A stretch of DNA of 64,000 nucleotides from Conexivisphaerales archaeon. GTDB taxonomy: Archaea > Thermoproteota > Nitrososphaeria > Conexivisphaerales > UBA164. The stretch lies in assembly GCA_030756715.1 (NCBI GenBank), contig JAVBJD010000001.1:5578-69577 (forward strand), written 5' to 3'. Both the position numbers and the translations under genes were made by a program. Shown here one piece after another: positions 17,266-44,375 of the stretch (its first letter is position 1; each line of letters opens with the position of its first letter). The notes below the pieces were generated by a model. It was given only the letters and a program-made list of their open reading frames with translations. It was not told the DNA's origin and did not search any database.

Positions 17266-17802
17266 TTATTTATCCTGTCTGTAAAGTATAATGTCTTTAA
17301 TGAATCCTGTCTCGTCTATTTCAACCTTTGACCTCCAGTCCTTAAAAACTATACCGTTTTCTTCTTTTATGTATCCAAGCCTTTCTAGCTTTGCTATTAT
17401 TTGATTCACTCTCCACCTAGGCAACTTTTCGGTAAGAATCCTCATTACCACCTCTAGAGGTACAGATCCTCCCCTCAGGGAAATCTCTACAAGAATCATT
17501 GCCAGCGAAGCTATTTCTTCTATGCGGAGCCACCGGCTATAGTCTGCTTCAGAGAGTGGCTCCTTCGTCATCAACACAAACCGTGCCTTTTCAAAGTCCT
17601 TGGGCGCCTCATCATCGGGGATTATAGCTATCTTCATGCCTAACCTGTCAGCTTCTAAGGAAGCTACTTTTATAGCCTCAAGATAATCTTTCCCAAGATG
17701 CTTTTTTAATTCCCAGCCTTTCAATCCCGGTAATGATGAAGTCTCTATCAGTAAAAGTCTGAGCGCCTTTATGGCTTTCTTTTGAAGTTCTTCTTCAGCC
17801 AA
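17266..17802 (-). CDS. Tandem winged-helix protein, ScpB/KITE-like partner of the SMC-like ATPase
   Basis: 178 aa with two wH-like halves: KALRLLLIETSSLPGLKGWELKKHL... and ...SVPLEVVMRILTEKLPRWRVNQIIAKLERLGYIKEENGIVF. Last gene of the operon, overlapping the previous gene by 8 nt. Confidence 0.45.
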   Translation of the reverse strand: MAEEELQKKAIKALRLLLIETSSLPGLKGWELKKHLGKDYLEAIKVASLEADRLGMKIAIIPDDEAPKDFEKARFVLMTKEPLSEADYSRWLRIEEIASLAMILVEISLRGGSVPLEVVMRILTEKLPRWRVNQIIAKLERLGYIKEENGIVFKDWRSKVEIDETGFIKDIILYRQDK

Positions 17803-18505
17803 ATGGTATCGCCACGCTTTCGAATTCTCCTCCTAGCGGGTTGCTTATCAGCGTTTCTCCAGTAAGAGGATTCCTGAGAACTGATATAACTCCTATGTTT
17901 GAGAGGTAAGCTATGTAAAATGCTACTTTTAATTTTTCGTTAAACTTCTCTATGAATTCTTTATAGGGCACTGTCTTGAGTTTTTCAAGTTCCTGCTTTA
18001 AGCTTTTTTCGTAAAATTCCATAGCTTCTTCTTCAAACTTTTTGTCAAAAACTATGCTCTGTGTGTATTCGCTTTCGTGCCTGGAAACGCTTCCCAAGCT
18101 CGGTTTTCTGCCCCACGGCTCTATCAACCCCAAGTATTCAACTGCCATCTTTATCCTTTCACGGCTTATTCTTTTTATCCCAAGGGCTGGAGTAGTGTGC
18201 TTTGCAAGTATAAGACCTAAGTCTTTAAATGGCATTTGCTTTACTTTTTCTTTTATGAGCTGTGGGTCTATTTTAAGGCCCTTTAACGCATCCAGTACCC
18301 ATTCTTCTTGTTTTTCAATAACTATAGATACAGAATTTAGAGCCTGCGATTCGTATTTTAAAGAAATAACCCTGTCTTTAAGCTTATTTTCATTTATCTT
18401 TTTTAAAAGTTCTTCAACGTTGATGGCGAACGGGTCTCCACCTACTTTTTTTAAAACTTCTGGCAGCTCTATTATTTTCTTTAATTCTTCTTCTTTGCCG
18501 TTCAC
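17795..18505 (-). CDS. Kleisin (ScpA)-like protein
   Basis: 236 aa with a helical N-terminus (DPFAINVEELLKKINE). The C-terminus VAFYIAYLSNIGVISVLRNPLTGETLIS resembles the ScpA C-terminal winged helix. 4 nt overlap with the SMC-like gene. Confidence 0.45.
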   Translation of the reverse strand: MNGKEEELKKIIELPEVLKKVGGDPFAINVEELLKKINENKLKDRVISLKYESQALNSVSIVIEKQEEWVLDALKGLKIDPQLIKEKVKQMPFKDLGLILAKHTTPALGIKRISRERIKMAVEYLGLIEPWGRKPSLGSVSRHESEYTQSIVFDKKFEEEAMEFYEKSLKQELEKLKTVPYKEFIEKFNEKLKVAFYIAYLSNIGVISVLRNPLTGETLISNPLGGEFESVAIPFG

Positions 18506-20259
18506 TTAGCTATCACCTTAGGAGCGCTGCCGTTCTGACTCTTCTGAACTATTATGAAATTTATATCAGGAGCATAAAAGCTAGGGAAGTTTGGAGTTAT
18601 TATTAGGTACTGTGTTTCGCTGCCTTGAGATACATCATATATAGCTTTGATAAACTTCTCCCTTATGATTGGATCCATGTGGACGTCAAACTCGTCCAAT
18701 GCCCTGAAAGGAGAAACTATGTACATCTGTACAGCTAACAGGAATGCTGTTACTGCCGCGCTCAGCTCTCCGCCGCTCTGAGAAAAACTGTCAAGCGGTA
18801 TTAGGTCTGTGCCAACGAAGCTTGCATAAAGCCTAAGACCGGCGTTCTCTGGATCGTTTTCGTTAATCAGTATGACCTTTCCGCTGGCATTTATCCTTGC
18901 CATTATCTCGTTATACTTTTCATTTATCTCAGAAATGGTCTTCCTTATAACTTCTTTCCACTCTTCAGATCTGCTTTCTATCTCTTTCATGGTTTTTTCC
19001 TTGTTCTTCCTTACTTCATCCAGCTTTTCCTTGTATTCATCCACTTTAGCCTTGAACTCTAGGTACACTTTTTCTGCTTCTTGATTTACATCTCCAAGAA
19101 CTTTCAGCTGAGCGTTGATCGTCCTTATTTCATCTTCTATTTCAGAGATCGTCCTGACGTTTGCAGGCCTTTGACCTGTAACCTTTTTAATAGCTTCGTT
19201 CAGCTCGTTTTTTAAGGATTCAAGATCCCTGTTTAATTCTTTAAGGCTTGAATTTAAAGAGTCTATCCTGTATTCCCCTACTTTAACTTTAGAGTATTCG
19301 GCTAACATTTTTTCAAGAAGCGAATTAATTTCGTTTAACGAATCATAAATCGCTGTAACAGACTTTTCATCGCCTTTATAGGCTTTAGCTGCACTCTCCT
19401 TTATTATTTGAACTAGAGTATTGTACCTGTTTTTATCGGATTCAAAATCTGAAAGCAGTTCTCTGTTTCTTGCTGTCTGAGTTGAAATTTCTTCGTTTAT
19501 CTTGTTTATTTTTTCATTTGTGCTGTTTATTGACTTTTCCAGCTTCAAAACTTCAGCCCATGCATATTCTGCGTTTAGCTCCTCTAGCCTCTGTTTAAGC
19601 TGACGACTCATGACCAACCTGTCGTATTCTTCGCGCCACTTTTCCAGAGAATCCATCGCTTTACCTATGAGATCTTGGTATTGATTTTCTTCAGCTATTA
19701 TATTCTTTAATCTGTTTTTGGCGTCAAGTAGGTTTTCTCTTATATTAGCTATACCTAGAGCTTCTTCAACCATTTTTAGCTTGTCCTCAGGCTTAATCAT
19801 GATAAATTCGTCAACCATGCCCTGTGGCATTATTATCAGAAGGTTATTGGGATCTATACCTACTTTCTTTAAAAGATCAAGGACCTGCTGCCTAGATGCT
19901 TCTTTATAATCTATCTCAAACCAGTAAGAGCCGTCTTTTCTTAAATACCTTGAAAGCATTATTTCGTCTTTATTATAAGCCGGAAAGGGCCTTTTGCCAT
20001 TTTCTTTTGAATTGTTTATAACTAAAGAAACCCTGCCAATATCTTCTCCTCTTCGAACTAAATCTGCCAGTTTCCTGCTTCTTTCAGTAGAAAGCTGGCC
20101 CATAGCTAAAGACATACCGAGAAGAATGGCGCTTTTGCCAGCGCCATTAGGGCCAGTTATAAAATTAAACCCAGGTTTTAATGTTATCCTTCCATACTTA
20201 TAACTCATAAAGTTTTCAAGAATCACTTCTTTTATTATAGCTTTGCTCAACCCAAACAA
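18502..20259 (-). CDS. Short SMC-like ATPase (Smc5/6-like head motifs, no hinge, no Cys)
   Basis: ILENFMSY...GPNGAGKSAIL (Walker A). IIMPQGMVDEFIMIKPEDKLKMVEEALGI (SMC Q-loop region). About 300 aa of heptad-rich K/E/L sequence. QSGGELS signature and PFRALDEFDVHMD (Walker B/D-loop). Confidence 0.8.
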   Translation of the reverse strand: MFGLSKAIIKEVILENFMSYKYGRITLKPGFNFITGPNGAGKSAILLGMSLAMGQLSTERSRKLADLVRRGEDIGRVSLVINNSKENGKRPFPAYNKDEIMLSRYLRKDGSYWFEIDYKEASRQQVLDLLKKVGIDPNNLLIIMPQGMVDEFIMIKPEDKLKMVEEALGIANIRENLLDAKNRLKNIIAEENQYQDLIGKAMDSLEKWREEYDRLVMSRQLKQRLEELNAEYAWAEVLKLEKSINSTNEKINKINEEISTQTARNRELLSDFESDKNRYNTLVQIIKESAAKAYKGDEKSVTAIYDSLNEINSLLEKMLAEYSKVKVGEYRIDSLNSSLKELNRDLESLKNELNEAIKKVTGQRPANVRTISEIEDEIRTINAQLKVLGDVNQEAEKVYLEFKAKVDEYKEKLDEVRKNKEKTMKEIESRSEEWKEVIRKTISEINEKYNEIMARINASGKVILINENDPENAGLRLYASFVGTDLIPLDSFSQSGGELSAAVTAFLLAVQMYIVSPFRALDEFDVHMDPIIREKFIKAIYDVSQGSETQYLIITPNFPSFYAPDINFIIVQKSQNGSAPKVIAK

Positions 20260-20433: not shown

Positions 20434-21108
20434 ATGAGCAAAGATCCTGAAGAAGAAAAGCTTGAACGATTGTTAAAGGATGGTCTGGATTCTCTGTGGA
20501 AGAAGGAAAAATCAGAGCATCAAACAACAAAAGGCATTTACTATCCTTCATACGTAGGTTCTTGCCTGAGAAAACAATTTTATATTTATACAGCTGGAGA
20601 ATCTGTAACCTCTGAAGAACTTGTGATATTTATGACCGGAAAAGGCGTTCATGAACTCGTGGTTAAAGCGTTTGGAGAAAAAGTGAGGATAGAGAGCGTA
20701 GAAGAAAAGATAAACCTAGAATTTACAGATAAAATTAAGCTGAGCGGGAGGATAGATATTATAATCGCCGATATAGAAGGTAAAAAATACCTAATAGAGG
20801 TAAAAAGCGCAAGCAAAACACCTGATAGTCCGTATGAAAGCCATGTGCTGCAGTTACATGCTTACATGCAGGCTTTGAAATTTGATGAAGGGTATCTCCT
20901 TTATTGGAATAAAAGGGATGGGGGAATCAGGGTTTTTAAAGTAATAAAAAACGATGAAATGATGAGAAAACTCTACGAAAGAGTAGCAATGCTTGATTAT
21001 TATATATCAATAAACTCGCCACCGCCCCCAGAATCTTATCAAGAAGGAAAAACATGGGAATGCAGAAAATGCCCGTACCTTAACTTGTGTAATCCTGGCC
21101 CTCTTTGA
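20434..21108 (+). CDS. Cas4-like PD-(D/E)xK nuclease with a four-Cys cluster (stand-alone, no CRISPR nearby)
   Basis: N-terminal Cys (YVGSCLRKQFY), nuclease core RIDIIIADIEGKKYLIEVKSAS, QLHAYM, and a C-terminal CRKCPYLNLC. Confidence 0.75.
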   Translation: MSKDPEEEKLERLLKDGLDSLWKKEKSEHQTTKGIYYPSYVGSCLRKQFYIYTAGESVTSEELVIFMTGKGVHELVVKAFGEKVRIESVEEKINLEFTDKIKLSGRIDIIIADIEGKKYLIEVKSASKTPDSPYESHVLQLHAYMQALKFDEGYLLYWNKRDGGIRVFKVIKNDEMMRKLYERVAMLDYYISINSPPPPESYQEGKTWECRKCPYLNLCNPGPL

Positions 21109-21602
21109 TTTGTTTAATTATAAAAGCTTATTAGACGTCTTCATGTAAATTATTAGAGCGTTGATAAAAGTTGGAGAATATGAAATACGCGAAGCAAATG
21201 AAGACAATATATGGGAAGCAGTTAAAATAAACGAAAAGACGCTGCCAGAACACTACACTTTTGAGTTTTACCTAGAAGTTTATAGAAATTTTCCAGAAGG
21301 CTTCCTTATAGCTTGGCTTGACGGGAATGCAGTAGGATACATAATGAATAGGATAGAAAGGGGGCTTTCGCATTTTGGCTTTTCAATAGTAAAGCAAGGA
21401 CACGTGGTCTCAATAGCTGTTTTGCCTGAACACAGGAGAAAAGGTCTAGGGACGGCTTTGCTCCAAACTGCTATCGAAAGGATGAAGAACAGAGGGTGTC
21501 AAGAAGTCTACCTTGAAGTTAGAGTTACAAACGAAGAAGCTATACGAGTATATGAAAAGCTTAACTTTGTAAAGGTAAGAACTATTGAATATTACTATAG
21601 TG

Positions 21603-22195
<593 letters not shown>

Positions 22196-41887: not shown

Positions 41888-42286
41888 ATGGAAAACAAAG
41901 ATCGTGAACTTGAAAAGCCGGCAGACCTAAAAGTAATCACCATAGAGCAAGAGATATATGGGTTCTTTAAGTCGAAGAAAAATACTTCTTTTGAAAGCAG
42001 GTTAAAAAAAGAGCTTTATGATCTAATAATTAGCGAAGGAATAAGCAAAGATAACCTCAGAATAGTTCAGAAAGAAAAAGTCCTTGATATTAAAACAGGA
42101 AATTTTATAATCAATATGGACGTGTACGATGGAGAAAAGAAAGTTTACTCTGTAGCAGCGCATGGAAAAGCTAACATTATAAACAGGAATGGAAAGCCTT
42201 ACATAAAATCACAGAAAATAACGATAGACCTTTTTGCATTAGGCTCTACCAAAAGTCCCCAAGACTCATCTGGCTTGAAGCCCTGA
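41888..42286 (+). CDS. Hypothetical protein
   Basis: 132 aa with K/E-rich coding-like composition and no recognisable motif. Its 3' end overlaps the DP2-like gene tail-to-tail by 41 nt. Confidence 0.4.
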   Translation: MENKDRELEKPADLKVITIEQEIYGFFKSKKNTSFESRLKKELYDLIISEGISKDNLRIVQKEKVLDIKTGNFIINMDVYDGEKKVYSVAAHGKANIINRNGKPYIKSQKITIDLFALGSTKSPQDSSGLKP

Positions 42287-44375
42287 AGATGCTTTTTATG
42301 CTATTTACATAAATATCTATAATTTCTATATACTGGGAACCCTGAAAATCTTCTGATAGCTGGTTCAGTTGCAGGATAAAATTATTTAAATCGGATGATG
42401 TGAACCTAGGCCTGAGTTTCGAACCACATTTCGGACATCTCATGTTTAAAGGAGGCACCCTAAGCCTTTTGCCGCATTTTTCGCAAATGTATGACTGCCT
42501 TACGAACATATCTTCAACCTTCTTTATCAGATGCACTGAGTCCTTTTCGTTTGCAGAGTCGGGATATGTATTCGAAAGCAAATTTATTATGCCTTTTATG
42601 ATCTCAGTCAGGTTTTGCTGGTATATAGGCGTCCTCATATAGTCTATTTCAATCGGAAACAAATCGGCGCTTTCTGACGACTTGTAGACAACGATCCCTT
42701 TGTTTTTTTGGCATGTACAGTTTAAGGCTACGTCTTCGCTTAAAGCGAAATAAGCCTGATTGTCAAGTACCCCTAAACCAGCAAATTCCATTATGTTGGG
42801 GTTTACTATAGCTTCATTCCCCTGCCTGTAGCCCTTTATTTTAAGCTCTATCCCTGCATTAAGAGGCTTGTTAAAAATAATCAGATTTGAACCTATATCA
42901 TCATAATCAGCTTTTTGGTCATAGACATTAATTAGTTCTTCCTTAATGAAAGATTTAATTTCTTTAATTAATGGTTCATACTTTGCGGGCATCTCAATTT
43001 CGTTCGCATCAACGTTTCCAGCCTGTAACTTAATCGGGGTTAAGATCATTCCGAGCGGACTCGCTAACAAAGAGTTTTTCTGCCTTAATAGCAATTTATC
43101 CGGCAGTTCGGGTTCGCTTAATAATATTCTAGGAAGCTTTGGCTCCCTTAAGTTCATTATATTAAGCCTGCTTGCAGCATAACTCAGGCTTTCTTTAATA
43201 TCGATTTCATTGATATGAGGATCTGTTGTCTTTGAACCGCACTTCGGGCAAGTTTCCTCCTTTGTGTATATGCCACATCTTTTGCAATAATATATTTCAA
43301 CAGTCTTAGATCCGCATCGTTCGCACTTTCTGAAAGGCGTGGTTCTTTTACACTTCTCACAGAACCTTAACCTTAAACCTGAATTTAGACCTAAACCTTT
43401 TGAAGCAAGAAGACCATCATACTTGTTAAGTTCATGAAGCTCTTTATCAATTCTAATGAATACTTTAAGCGTTCCCCTGTAGGGTTCAAAGGTGTTTATT
43501 CCACCGAGACCGTTTTTAAGTATATGAAGAATAGCTTTAGTCCTTTCATCATCAGGATCCGACAATTTTATAGCGTCTTTTTCTGTGTAGAACGGCACTT
43601 GTGATTCGATCAATGCCTGAAGTGATACCTGGTTTAACTGTATTCTTTTATCGTCTATGAGCTTCAGTTTAAAGATCGACCTTGGAAAAGAAAAGTAAGG
43701 GTTTAATCGTCCAGCGTTCCTAGCTTCTTCTAAAGCATCATCAAAATTCTGTATCGCTTTTTCGCATCTGTACAAAAAAAGGTCAGCACAAGCTTTTAAT
43801 GGAAGAAGCAATTCCCCGAAACTCACGAGCCTGCCCTTTTGCTCGTTTGATGCTTTGACCCCGTCAAAAAACAGAGGTGATTTAACTTCTTTAGAGAAAT
43901 AAAGCCTGTAAAAAGAATTTCCTATTTTTATAGGTAAGGAGTTCATTTTCAAGTTCATGATATCAGCTATTTTATCGCTTGCAACAGCGATGGGCGCTTT
44001 GCTATCTACAAACCTTAGTATGAACCTGTTTGTTATATCAAAAGTAATATAACCTTTGCCTTTTGGGGGATTTATTTTTGGAGTCTTTAAGTTTTTAATG
44101 AAATCTATGAACGTGAACTCCCACTGGCCAAAATAGTCTGAAAATATCGAGTTTATCTTGGTCCCCTTGATCGGATCTTGATAAGTGGAAGGGTAGCCTC
44201 CATAAGATTCGCTTATCTGCCTAACGACGAATTCCCTTAACTCATTATAGTTTAAAAACTCATTTTTTGTAAATTTTGGCTCGTTAATGAAACTAAACTT
44301 TTCTTTTATTTCAATGTTGTCAGAAGGATCAATACCGTTTTCTCTTCTTATTTTTAGGGCGTCTTCAAACAGCAT
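42246..44375 (-). CDS. PolD large subunit (DP2)-like protein, shortened and lacking the catalytic acidic motif
   Basis: Collinear with Pyrococcus DP2 as I remember it. The N-terminus ALKIRRENGIDPSDNIEI corresponds to DP2 AKKARSQGKDPSTDVEI. RFILRFVDSK corresponds to GFRLRYGRSR. The central element is CEKC..CERC..CKRC..CPKC. The C-terminal element is ICEKCGKRLRVPPLNMRCPKCG. The terminal sequence is QMSLGDFW. Where DP2 has NCDGDED, this protein has NCTCQKN (42696-42722). Confidence 0.7.
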   Translation of the reverse strand: MLFEDALKIRRENGIDPSDNIEIKEKFSFINEPKFTKNEFLNYNELREFVVRQISESYGGYPSTYQDPIKGTKINSIFSDYFGQWEFTFIDFIKNLKTPKINPPKGKGYITFDITNRFILRFVDSKAPIAVASDKIADIMNLKMNSLPIKIGNSFYRLYFSKEVKSPLFFDGVKASNEQKGRLVSFGELLLPLKACADLFLYRCEKAIQNFDDALEEARNAGRLNPYFSFPRSIFKLKLIDDKRIQLNQVSLQALIESQVPFYTEKDAIKLSDPDDERTKAILHILKNGLGGINTFEPYRGTLKVFIRIDKELHELNKYDGLLASKGLGLNSGLRLRFCEKCKRTTPFRKCERCGSKTVEIYYCKRCGIYTKEETCPKCGSKTTDPHINEIDIKESLSYAASRLNIMNLREPKLPRILLSEPELPDKLLLRQKNSLLASPLGMILTPIKLQAGNVDANEIEMPAKYEPLIKEIKSFIKEELINVYDQKADYDDIGSNLIIFNKPLNAGIELKIKGYRQGNEAIVNPNIMEFAGLGVLDNQAYFALSEDVALNCTCQKNKGIVVYKSSESADLFPIEIDYMRTPIYQQNLTEIIKGIINLLSNTYPDSANEKDSVHLIKKVEDMFVRQSYICEKCGKRLRVPPLNMRCPKCGSKLRPRFTSSDLNNFILQLNQLSEDFQGSQYIEIIDIYVNSIKSIFRASSQMSLGDFW

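Follow-up and report, generated by a model that had tools for sequence, protein, structure and literature searches.

The window (i.e. the whole 64-kb stretch of DNA that was analysed) comes from a Conexivisphaerales (Nitrososphaeria) MAG and carries three overlapping genes on its minus strand, encoding an SMC ATPase, a kleisin and a KITE protein, with a Cas4-like ORF on the opposite strand:

18502..20259, minus strand: SMC ATPase gene (585 aa, 66.9 kDa), a predicted hinge-less 'mini-SMC' of Smc5/6 type
17795..18505, minus strand: kleisin gene (236 aa), Nse4-type by profile; shares 4 nt at its start with the end of the ATPase gene
17266..17802, minus strand: KITE gene (178 aa), predicted tandem winged helix of Nse1/Nse3 type without RING; shares 8 nt at its start with the end of the kleisin gene
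20434-21108, plus strand: Cas4-like ORF, divergent from the ATPase gene

The lengths, coordinates and overlaps of these ORFs, as well as the divergent Cas4-like ORF, agree exactly with an earlier note on this DNA; database gene calls place the ATPase start 9 nt further downstream, giving 582 aa versus the 585 aa used here. That note had also described the ATPase as free of cysteine, which holds for the kleisin and the KITE protein too (0 in all three). The synteny check that it proposed gave a strong result, the kleisin gene lying immediately downstream of the ATPase gene in 74 of 80 loci and the KITE gene following the kleisin gene in 71, where the 80 loci compared represent different archaeal classes across TACK archaea. 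Because of this recurring trio and gene order, and of more than 1200 ATPase homologues in a database search, the three ORFs are real, conserved genes rather than chance ORFs. The trio was found in Nitrososphaeria, Bathyarchaeia, Methanomethylicia, Geothermarchaeota, Hadarchaeota and Thermoprotei, so that six or more archaeal classes have genomes with the module in an unchanged order of genes. Within the 64-kb window there is no second copy of an SMC, kleisin or KITE gene, and the surroundings of the trio are housekeeping genes, not a defence island.

The SMC head and its short arm

All the motifs of a complete SMC head could be located in the ATPase, as the earlier note had claimed: Walker A (GPNGAGKS) at position 36, the Q-loop (PQG) at 145, the signature (QSGGE) at 494 and Walker B/D-loop (LDEFD) at 521, the last with an intact Walker B glutamate (the DE of LDEFD is kept). 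The head halves and the parts between them, the latter as delimited by AlphaFold2, are as follows:

19750..20259, minus strand: N-terminal head half, residues 1-170, with the NFMSY strand, Walker A GPNGAGKS, LADLVRRG and the Q-loop
19378..19749, minus strand: predicted ascending coiled-coil helix, residues 171-294 (124 aa, ~18 nm; AlphaFold2 secondary structure)
19369..19377, minus strand: predicted apex, a 3-residue turn (K295-G296-D297) replacing a hinge or zinc hook
18898..19368, minus strand: predicted descending coiled coil, residues 298-454
19078-19182, minus strand: predicted SMC 'joint' break, residues 360-394 (...LKVLGDVNQE...)
18505..18897, minus strand: C-terminal head half, residues 455-585, with the QSGGE signature, Walker B/D-loop PFRALDEFDVHMD and a Smc5/6-type 'ITP' at the H-loop position

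The ATPase matches Pfam SMC_N at 2.7e-29 and scores 217 bits with the NCBIfam model SMC_prok_A, compared to 66 bits with Rad50, 58 with ASRP, 34 with recF and 31 with recN, where the cut-offs are 729 bits for full-length SMC, 700 or more for Rad50 and 300 for ASRP. As judged from these profiles, the ATPase is an SMC proper, and not a Rad50 or ASRP. Searched against the PDB, the ATPase family profile gave 227 and 216 bits for Smc6 and 204 and 181 for Smc5, with 185 for Pyrococcus Smc, 157 for Smc2, 144 for Smc3, 130 for Smc1, 111 for Smc4 and 53 for Rad50. Published ML and Bayesian trees support a position of TACK sequences as sister to eukaryotic Smc5+Smc6. The Smc6-like motifs that the earlier note had pointed out were compared with real Smc5/Smc6 and canonical SMC sequences, and the ATPase goes with Smc5/6; moreover, when 1.84 billion representatives were searched, Smc5/6 were the sole SMCs from eukaryotes to be identified in the best 150. 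The full family profile and the motif comparison distinguish Smc5/6 from canonical SMC. A head-only phmmer search against the PDB and a Foldseek search with the ATPase model each confirmed an SMC-proper head but did not tell the two apart. In profile and head motifs, then, the ATPase is nearer to Smc6/Smc5 than to canonical SMC, Rad50 or ClsN/ASRP. The deep nodes of a neighbour-joining tree on 374 head columns are unresolved (31-49% bootstrap), and the tree was used for the nesting of zinc-hook forms alone, not for placing the family.

In the AlphaFold2 model of the ATPase (pLDDT 87.3) the 284 residues between the head halves (171-454) form a 124-residue helix, a 3-residue turn (pLDDT 79-85) and return helices, without any globular insert. 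The best fold match by Foldseek is 5xei, a Pyrococcus Smc fragment comprising head, coiled coil and joint (E 1.7e-24), and two neck tryptophans of the ascending helix (W208 and W234) are invariant across the family. Pfam SMC_hinge matched neither the ATPase nor any of the homologues listed, and a central CxxC is absent from 119/119 homologues examined. The model thus agrees with the earlier note, which had seen neither a hinge-like insert nor a Rad50-type zinc hook, and predicts an arm of ~18 nm with a bare turn at its tip. All length variation in the family falls at the apex, where the number of conserved alignment columns is 0; the closest relatives keep a turn motif [YF]xG[DK], and longer relatives have extended non-helical insertions. 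Across the whole clade the ATPase measures 548-685 aa, the short form with intact motifs being common to 80/80 loci and to ~50 independent 50%-identity clusters, and the hinge-less state is shared by the entire clade.

Kleisin, KITE and neighbouring genes

Single-sequence queries of the kleisin and the KITE protein against Pfam, NCBIfam, PADLOC and the PDB matched nothing (including the ScpA and ScpB families of Pfam and NCBIfam), and family profiles were needed for both identities. Against the PDB the kleisin family profile matched EID3/Nse4 (1.3e-4 and 2.1e-4), the ScpA N-domain (3e-3) and the ScpA C-terminal winged helix (0.018), the two ScpA matches being weak and below Nse4. Of 34 members of the kleisin family, 16 have Pfam Nse4_C, at best with 1.2e-6. 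These profiles identify the 236-aa protein as an Nse4-type kleisin, so that of the ScpA-like winged-helix end proposed in the earlier note the kleisin assignment stands, while the nearest relative would be Nse4 instead of ScpA. For the 178-aa protein, in which two winged helices had been anticipated, the AlphaFold2 model (pLDDT 87.9) contains two H-H-H-E-E units, and in a Foldseek search of the PDB its four best matches come from Nse1 and Nse3/MAGE (probability 1.00, TM 0.63-0.70, E 3e-5 to 2e-4). MukE ranks below these, ScpB is absent from the top 50, and the KITE profile gives Nse3 at 4e-4 against the PDB. On the model, then, it is a tandem winged-helix KITE of Nse1/Nse3 type, and it has no RING because it has no cysteine.

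Directly upstream of the trio in the window lie Cas4-like and Mrr_cat genes (Pfam). The Cas4-like neighbour recurs in only 5 of the 80 loci, namely those of the five closest relatives, and there is no tandem-repeat array in the window; it was therefore rejected as a part of the module and is a lineage-specific neighbour. The argument of the earlier note for repair or restriction, in so far as it was drawn from this gene, does not hold. An Lhr helicase gene adjoins the trio in 40/80 loci, while none is present within this 64-kb window. Topoisomerase IB is another recurrent neighbour. Across the 80 loci no effector gene is kept alongside the trio, Nse2, Nse5 or Nse6 types are missing from the conserved neighbours, and there is no Toprim-type JetD neighbour. 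Gene neighbourhood is weak evidence for function, and for a role of repair type the affinity to Smc5/6 and the Lhr neighbour are better arguments than the Cas4-like gene.

Comparison with described complexes

An archaeal 'SMC5/6-related' SMC-kleisin-kite operon has been predicted before (Yoshinaga & Inagaki 2021, PMC8665677; van Hooff, Raas, Tromer & Eme, bioRxiv 10.1101/2024.01.07.573240). The trio in the window is alike in taxa (TACK, including Conexivisphaerales), in its three components and in gene order, and belongs to the complex predicted there, which means that the trio itself is not new. For Conexivisphaerales, one SMC5/6-related SMC, one Nse4-related kleisin and one Nse1/3-related kite have been reported, some members being listed without another SMC complex; Conexivisphaera calida has the SMC5/6-related set only, and no canonical SMC, kleisin or ScpB (van Hooff et al., 10.1101/2024.01.07.573240). 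These studies are phylogenomic, with the coiled coil removed by hand from some SMC alignments, and mention the hinge in general introductions only; the hinge-less half-length form, the zinc-hook variant and the Lhr link are not described in them. Nor was any account of an SMC built without a hinge in this way, of the variation at its apex or of Lhr as a recurrent neighbour found in the searchable literature. The caveat of the earlier note that the module might be an already characterised complex is thus borne out as far as computational prediction goes, but not as regards experimental characterisation or the hinge-less form.

The likeness to eukaryotic Smc5/6-Nse1/3/4 extends over the head motifs (NFM-, L[IV][RK][RH]G, PFRxxDEFDVxMD and ITP/TPK), the Nse4-type kleisin and the Nse1/Nse3/MAGE fold of the KITE protein. 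However, where eukaryotes have Smc5 and Smc6 as well as Nse1 and Nse3, the locus has one SMC gene (presumably encoding a homodimer) and one KITE gene, and the archaeal ATPase is predicted to lack a hinge and to have an arm of ~18 nm, whereas the arms of eukaryotic Smc5/6 measure roughly 35 nm; the KITE protein, furthermore, lacks the RING. Smc-ScpAB follows the same SMC-kleisin-KITE logic, with a weak profile match to both ScpA domains and the fold match to Pyrococcus Smc, but its SMC is ~1170 aa long and has a hinge (e.g. P0273, SMC_hinge 3e-21). Canonical SMC head motifs (NFKSF, PFYLFDEIDAHLD, ITL) differ from those of the ATPase, and the canonical architecture, a globular hinge on a coiled coil of ~50 nm, contrasts with its 3-residue turn at ~18 nm.

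With respect to short or hinge-less arms, the nearest analogues are RecN, LmuB, Rad50/SbcC and ClsN/ASRP. Rad50, ClsN/ASRP and many LmuB proteins dimerise by a zinc hook, which the ATPase does not have, while RecN dimerises through an arm-tip interface. Rad50 has no kleisin or KITE partner, and none is reported for ClsN. ClsN/coalescin (68 kDa, similar in size) was rejected on its ASRP score, 58 bits against a cut-off of 300, on the missing zinc hook and on the presence of partner genes. Lamassu and Wadjet, which had come up through PADLOC matches and nuclease neighbours, were likewise rejected on scores, neighbour conservation, the missing effector and the housekeeping context. Lamassu LmuB (about 650 aa, arms ~20 nm) usually has an E-to-Q change in Walker B and often a zinc hook; the ATPase has neither, scores only 89 bits with LmuB and is not accompanied by a conserved LmuA effector. 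As for Wadjet/MksBEFG, PADLOC is blank for the kleisin and the KITE protein, JetC reaches only 39 bits and JetD is missing.

A proposed DNA clamp and its alternatives

Following these comparisons, the trio is probably the TACK (Thermoproteota) form of an archaeal Smc5/6-type complex, whose chief role would be that of an ATP-gated clamp or tether on DNA in genome maintenance. Upon ATP binding, the heads of two SMC subunits would engage, and one kleisin would bridge the pair, with its N-terminal helical domain on one neck and its C-terminal winged helix on the other cap, and a KITE homodimer on its middle. DNA lying on the engaged heads would thus be enclosed in a compartment formed by all these parts, similar to the DNA-clamped state of Smc5/6. 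In the absence of a hinge the SMC pair would be joined by the kleisin bridge, head engagement and possibly side-by-side packing of the short arms only; the subunit numbers, the bridging by the kleisin and the absence of dimerisation at the apex are inferred. Such a complex would work in replication-associated repair and topology management as a clamp or tether, not as a long-armed ring, and the frequent Lhr repair-helicase neighbour fits this genome-maintenance role.

It is also possible, though rather doubtful, that the trio is a chromosome-organising loop extruder, in which the two arms pair at the tip or close to it (for example as a RecN-like four-helix bundle) or zip over their full length and so close a ring. 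Eukaryotic Smc5/6 extrudes loops, the turn motif is kept in the closest relatives, and in Conexivisphaera calida the SMC5/6-related set, being alone, may supply the general SMC function; in lineages without another SMC complex, chromosome organisation may fall to the trio, and this speaks for a function beyond that of a local clamp. In addition, Mini-Smc and Smc(zinc hook) chimeras of B. subtilis demonstrate that an engineered Smc tolerates shortened arms and a foreign type of dimerisation domain with its function kept, but all of these mini-Smc proteins retained a dimerisation domain (Burmann et al. 2017, PMC5344682). Furthermore, the lumen would be very small with ~18 nm arms, and the variation of the apex in length and sequence across the clade, without conserved columns, argues against a conserved tip interface. 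Since the monomer AlphaFold2 model is blind to intra- versus intermolecular pairing and the turn counts only three residues, a domain-swapped antiparallel dimer could be imagined as well, where residues 171-294 and 298-359 form one long helix that pairs with a second protomer, and the whole a dumbbell with composite heads at both ends instead of a hairpin. This is highly improbable, considering that the arms of all characterised SMC, Rad50, MukB and RecN proteins are intramolecular, that the Gly-Asp turn is kept in close relatives while longer ones have non-helical insertions at the apex, and that the turn is modelled with the pLDDT given above.

Anti-plasmid or anti-virus defence by Wadjet or Lamassu logic, with a short SMC-like sensor and the nearby Cas4-like and Mrr-like nucleases, could draw on the PADLOC sub-family matches of the ATPase (LmuB 8.5e-26, mad3 2.2e-29), on the nuclease genes directly upstream, on the similar size and arm length of LmuB, and on the restriction of viral DNA by human Smc5/6. 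It is nevertheless very unlikely: those nucleases are kept in the five closest relatives only, no effector is conserved with the trio, the kleisin and KITE draw a blank in PADLOC, the Walker B glutamate is intact (unlike in typical LmuB), the SMC-proper scores lie far above the Rad50 or LmuB-type scores, and the context is a housekeeping one with the same gene order in all those archaeal classes. The remaining alternative, that an ordinary SMC gene has been truncated or is decaying here, or that a ClsN/ASRP or Rad50-type protein has been mislabelled, might be suggested by a mass close to that of ClsN and by an SMC score far under the full-length cut-off. It is refuted by the short form with intact motifs at every locus and in the independent clusters, by the low ASRP and Rad50 scores without a zinc hook, and by the kleisin and KITE partners, which Rad50 lacks and which are unreported for ClsN.

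The hinge is viewed as a defining SMC feature, credited with dimerising the protein, closing the ring and serving as a gate for DNA or for obstacle bypass. A natural hinge-less, half-size and thermostable Smc5/6-type complex of three small, cysteine-free proteins, kept in many archaeal classes, would be a minimal system, which could show which SMC activities, among ATP-gated DNA clamping, topological entrapment, translocation and loop extrusion, need a closed SMC ring. The trio also runs counter to the frequent claim that SMC complexes are missing from Thermoproteota, and its Lhr helicase and topoisomerase IB neighbours are testable functional leads.

Whether the TACK clade has a complete SMC-kleisin-KITE without any arm-tip dimerisation element, the tip being an exchangeable module, is a serious possibility that falls somewhat short of an even chance. 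If true, Asgard and basal members would carry a hinge at the tip, most TACK members would have no such element, and a stand-alone Bathyarchaeial paralogue would have regained a Rad50-like zinc hook, and the kleisin/KITE/head compartment alone would suffice for the conserved cellular function of a Smc5/6-type complex. Natural hairpin, zinc-hook and hinge variants in one archaeal family parallel the engineered Smc finding in B. subtilis (PMC5344682), except that those constructs all retain a dimerisation module, whereas the ATPase in the window is predicted to have none. Hinge-bearing relatives (L082, L083 and the Asgard L084) carry homologous kleisin and KITE genes, and therefore the hinge was probably lost in the hinge-less clade; that the hinge-bearing Asgard and hinge-less TACK versions share kleisin and KITE also bears on the origin of eukaryotic Smc5/6. 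In one Bathyarchaeial branch the apex is zinc-hook-like, and in the neighbour-joining head tree the nesting of the zinc-hook forms is well supported (79-96% bootstrap).

An Smc5/6-type operon

In the window, which comes from a Conexivisphaerales/Nitrososphaeria MAG, three genes of the minus strand follow one another head to tail, with the coordinates, sizes and overlaps of 4 and 8 nt that had been claimed for them, all of which were recovered by ORF calling:

18502-20259, minus strand: SMC ATPase, 585 aa
17795-18505, minus strand: kleisin, 236 aa, 4-nt overlap with the ATPase gene
17266-17802, minus strand: KITE (tandem winged-helix SMC partner), 178 aa, 8-nt overlap with the kleisin gene

A sequence check found all motifs quoted by the earlier note in the ATPase, which is cysteine-free as stated there, as are the kleisin and the KITE. 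Assembly GCA_049967515.1 encodes a protein with 100% identity to the ATPase. The start of the ATPase is ambiguous: the longest ORF begins with a TTG at 20259 (585 aa; window 20250-20259), while databases mostly annotate this protein and its close relatives at 582 aa, with a start 9 nt downstream.

Judged by its profile matches, the ATPase belongs to the SMCs proper and is of Smc5/6 type. It matches Pfam SMC_N at 2.7e-29 and scores 217 bits with the NCBIfam archaeal SMC model, versus ~ 66 for Rad50 and 31 for RecN; the ASRP model (ClsN/Sph family; ClsN being a separate zinc-hook family) gives 58 bits at a cut-off of 300. When a family profile built from 40 sequences was searched against the PDB, Smc6 (227 and 216 bits) and Smc5 (204 and 181 bits) took the top ranks, followed lower down by the Pyrococcus Smc head (185), Smc2 (157), Smc3 (144) and Smc1 (130), and lowest by B. 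subtilis Smc (127), Smc4 (111) and Rad50 (53). The eukaryotic proteins identified in the best 150 matches of 1.84 billion cluster representatives were all of Smc5/6 type. The Smc6-type head motifs named in the earlier note held up against real Smc5, Smc6 and canonical archaeal SMC sequences: NFMSY, LxDL[IV]RRG, PFRAxDEFDVHMDxxNR and QYxxITP are common to the family and eukaryotic Smc6/Smc5 (NFMCH, LIKRG, PFRAMDEFDVFMD and ITPQ in Smc6; TPKLL in Smc5), whereas canonical archaeal SMCs have NFKSF, VIYDG, PFYLFDEIDAHLD and ITL at these sites. Neither head-only pairwise scores nor Foldseek on the ATPase model separated Smc5/6 from canonical SMC, and the deep nodes of a neighbour-joining head tree lacked resolution; the family is therefore placed by means of published trees and its partner proteins.

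As single sequences, the two partners had no match in Pfam, NCBIfam, PADLOC or the PDB, and profiles of both were built from syntenic homologues. The 236-aa profile matched yeast Nse4 and EID3, the human Nse4 paralogue, with E-values of ~ 1e-4 and, more weakly, the ScpA N-terminal domain (3e-3) and C-terminal winged helix (0.018), while 16 of 34 family members individually matched Pfam Nse4_C (best 1.2e-6). The 178-aa profile matched Nse3/MAGE (4e-4) and, weakly, Nse1. AlphaFold2 models the KITE as two winged helices in tandem (pLDDT 87.9), and the four top PDB fold matches of this model are Nse1 and Nse3/MAGE-G1 chains (probability 1.00, TM 0.63-0.70); MukE ranked below these, and ScpB was missing from the top 50. 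The kleisin and double winged-helix assignments are thus both upheld, and more specifically the 236-aa protein is, by its profile matches, a predicted Nse4-type kleisin and the 178-aa protein an Nse1/3-type KITE.

An 'SMC5/6-related archaeal SMC' was defined in TACK lineages by Yoshinaga & Inagaki (2021; PMC8665677), and operons of such an SMC with an Nse4-related kleisin and an Nse1/3-related kite were described in TACK and Asgard archaea by van Hooff et al. (bioRxiv 10.1101/2024.01.07.573240, version 2 of 2025), whose table lists one each of SMC, kleisin and kite for Conexivisphaerales genomes. The trio thus belongs to a complex that is known from computational prediction and not from experiment. 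The proviso that the module might already be characterised thus applies to its prediction, but not to experiment, nor to how long these SMCs are and whether they have a hinge, points that neither paper discusses ('hinge' occurs in their general introductions only and nowhere in the supplements). In the further literature searched, hinge-less SMC variants were reported only for marine Actinobacteria, in a paper that also describes Thermoproteota as without SMC complexes. The locus is a hinge-less, half-size architectural variant of the known, predicted complex; it is of interest both as a minimal SMC system from nature and for its bearing on the origin of Smc5/6.

The hinge-less arm and its relatives

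In the AlphaFold2 model of the ATPase (pLDDT 87.3), the protein is laid out as follows:

residues 1-170: N-terminal head half
residues 171-294: single continuous helix, ~ 18 nm
residues 295-297: three-residue turn (KGD)
residues 298-454: return helices, with a break at 360-394 corresponding to an SMC-type joint
residues 455-585: C-terminal head half

The top fold match is 5xei, an engineered Pyrococcus 'Smc head + coiled coil + joint' fragment. The modelled KGD turn, together with the lack of a central CxxC in any of 119 full-length homologues, bears out the claim that there is neither a hinge nor a zinc hook, and the ATPase is accordingly hinge-less; Pfam SMC_hinge was not found among the homologues listed. 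Length variation in the family (561-720 aa) falls entirely at the apex (the arm tip), where the alignment has no conserved column. Since short forms (564-683 aa) are present at all 80 loci compared, except for one over-called ORF, and are likewise encoded by ~ 50 independent 50%-identity clusters, shortness is a trait of the clade, and a truncated gene can be dismissed.

Three longer relatives bear a hinge: an 835-aa protein of the Asgard archaeon Freyarchaeum has a clear Pfam hinge, a 982-aa protein a weak but near-full-length match (E = 0.005), and a 928-aa protein (P0240, locus L083) a globular middle. Each is followed by homologues of the window's kleisin and KITE (E-values 2e-36/1e-34, 2e-43/2e-18 and 1e-13/6e-15), so that the hairpin SMCs (short forms whose arm ends in a bare turn) would most simply be hinge-deleted descendants of the same module. 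The kleisin homologue of P0240 (L083:8784-9938) carries an N-terminal extension of ~ 135 aa that weakly matches winged helices of MarR/IclR type. In Candidatus Freyarchaeum deiterrae (CP147778.1; L084:1-6004), an AAA ATPase gene directly precedes the hinge-bearing operon, and genes for ubiquitin, E2 (UQ_con), E1 (ThiF) and a RING-finger protein lie 2-6 kb from it, an intriguing setting given that the subunits of eukaryotic Smc5/6 include ligases for ubiquitin and SUMO.

Bathyarchaeial paralogues of ~ 1030 aa (proteins P0216, P0320, P0215 and P0219) nest within the hairpin clade (79-96% bootstrap, neighbour-joining head tree):

L081:2105-5248: Bathyarchaeial paralogue
L086:6001-9087: Bathyarchaeial paralogue
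L087:6001-9087: Bathyarchaeial paralogue

Their central CxxC motif, KPQI[KR]CDKCGS, resembles a Rad50 zinc hook, and no kleisin or KITE genes were found within 6 kb; an assignment as ASRPs was rejected. Two further SMC-like proteins that are short and hinge-less, P0243 and P0244 (628 and 633 aa), group in the head tree with canonical or Asgard-type SMCs outside the main hairpin clade, and hinge loss may have occurred more than once.

Gene neighbourhood and predicted function

The synteny sample comprised 80 loci, with genomes that belong to different species, spanning Nitrososphaeria, Bathyarchaeia, Methanomethylicia, Geothermarchaeota, Hadarchaeota and Thermoprotei. The order of the trio is kept, with a kleisin homologue immediately after the ATPase in 74 loci and a KITE homologue next in 71, the exceptions being mostly contig ends. 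An Lhr-type DNA repair helicase adjoins the trio in 40/80 loci of several archaeal classes and also lies near the operon of P0222, a hinge-bearing relative (L082), while a eukaryotic-type topoisomerase IB is found upstream in 16, mostly in Methanomethylicia. Neither of these genes was found in the window. The function of the trio is probably genome maintenance, which the frequent Lhr neighbour fits. The Lhr gene (domains DEAD, Helicase_C, WH_Lhr and DEAD_assoc) stands just downstream of the trio and is mostly convergent. Examples are:

L026:11981-14848, minus strand: Lhr
L014:11197-14073, minus strand: Lhr
L042:11129-12874, minus strand: Lhr
L082:10599-12962: Lhr
L026:6205-7881, minus strand: topoisomerase IB (Topoisom_I_N, Topoisom_I, Topo_C_assoc)

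The catalytic motifs of the ATPase are intact, the SMC joint is present, three head-proximal coiled-coil tryptophans (W208, W234 and W434) are invariant in the family alignment, both kleisin termini are recognisable and the KITE has its winged helices in tandem. By analogy with established SMC-kleisin architecture and DNA-clamped Smc5/6 structures, ATP would engage two SMC heads, a single kleisin would reach from one SMC's neck to its partner's cap, and a KITE homodimer on the kleisin would help to seal a compartment that encloses DNA resting on the heads. As a hinge-less pair would be held by the kleisin, head engagement and perhaps arm packing, our preferred reading is a clamp or tether gated by ATP, not a large ring. 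Its main rival, a genuine chromosome organiser that extrudes loops and dimerises via its arms, gains weight because some Conexivisphaerales are listed without any other SMC complex (van Hooff et al. table, 10.1101/2024.01.07.573240). Engineered Smc of B. subtilis can cope with an exchanged hinge and with certain truncations of the arms, but a dimerisation module was always kept in these constructs (PMC5344682).

A defence role for the trio is unlikely. The locus lies among housekeeping genes (thermosome, PheRS, SHMT, argininosuccinate lyase, topoisomerase IA and ABC transporters in the surrounding 64 kb) and no tandem-repeat array was found in the 64-kb window, so it belongs to no mobile element or defence island. 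The earlier note had argued for a role in DNA repair or restriction from a Cas4-like gene divergent from the ATPase, 174 bp upstream. Among the 80 loci, this gene is kept beside the ATPase in only the five closest relatives and was rejected as a part of the module; that reasoning consequently falls, while the SMC-kleisin-KITE composition, the Smc5/6 affinity and the absence of a hinge stand. The gene belongs to a small cluster (20434-22130, plus strand), divergent from the SMC operon and seen again in its entirety in L088, a locus of the same species:

20434-21108, plus strand: Cas4-like PD-(D/E)XK nuclease, four cysteines
21161-21640, plus strand: GNAT acetyltransferase
21585-22130, plus strand: Mrr_cat/NERD-like nuclease, overlapping the GNAT gene

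Elsewhere in the window, a 709-aa ORF (42246-44375, minus strand) has a weak double zinc ribbon near its C-terminus as its sole Pfam match and is otherwise uncharacterised. A conserved 227-aa protein, absent from the window and without a Pfam or NCBIfam match, is encoded upstream of the trio, usually divergently, in 36/80 loci and could be a further associated factor; examples are:

L031:7217-7900, minus strand: 227-aa protein
L026:5405-6088, minus strand: 227-aa protein
L063:6560-7243, minus strand: 227-aa protein
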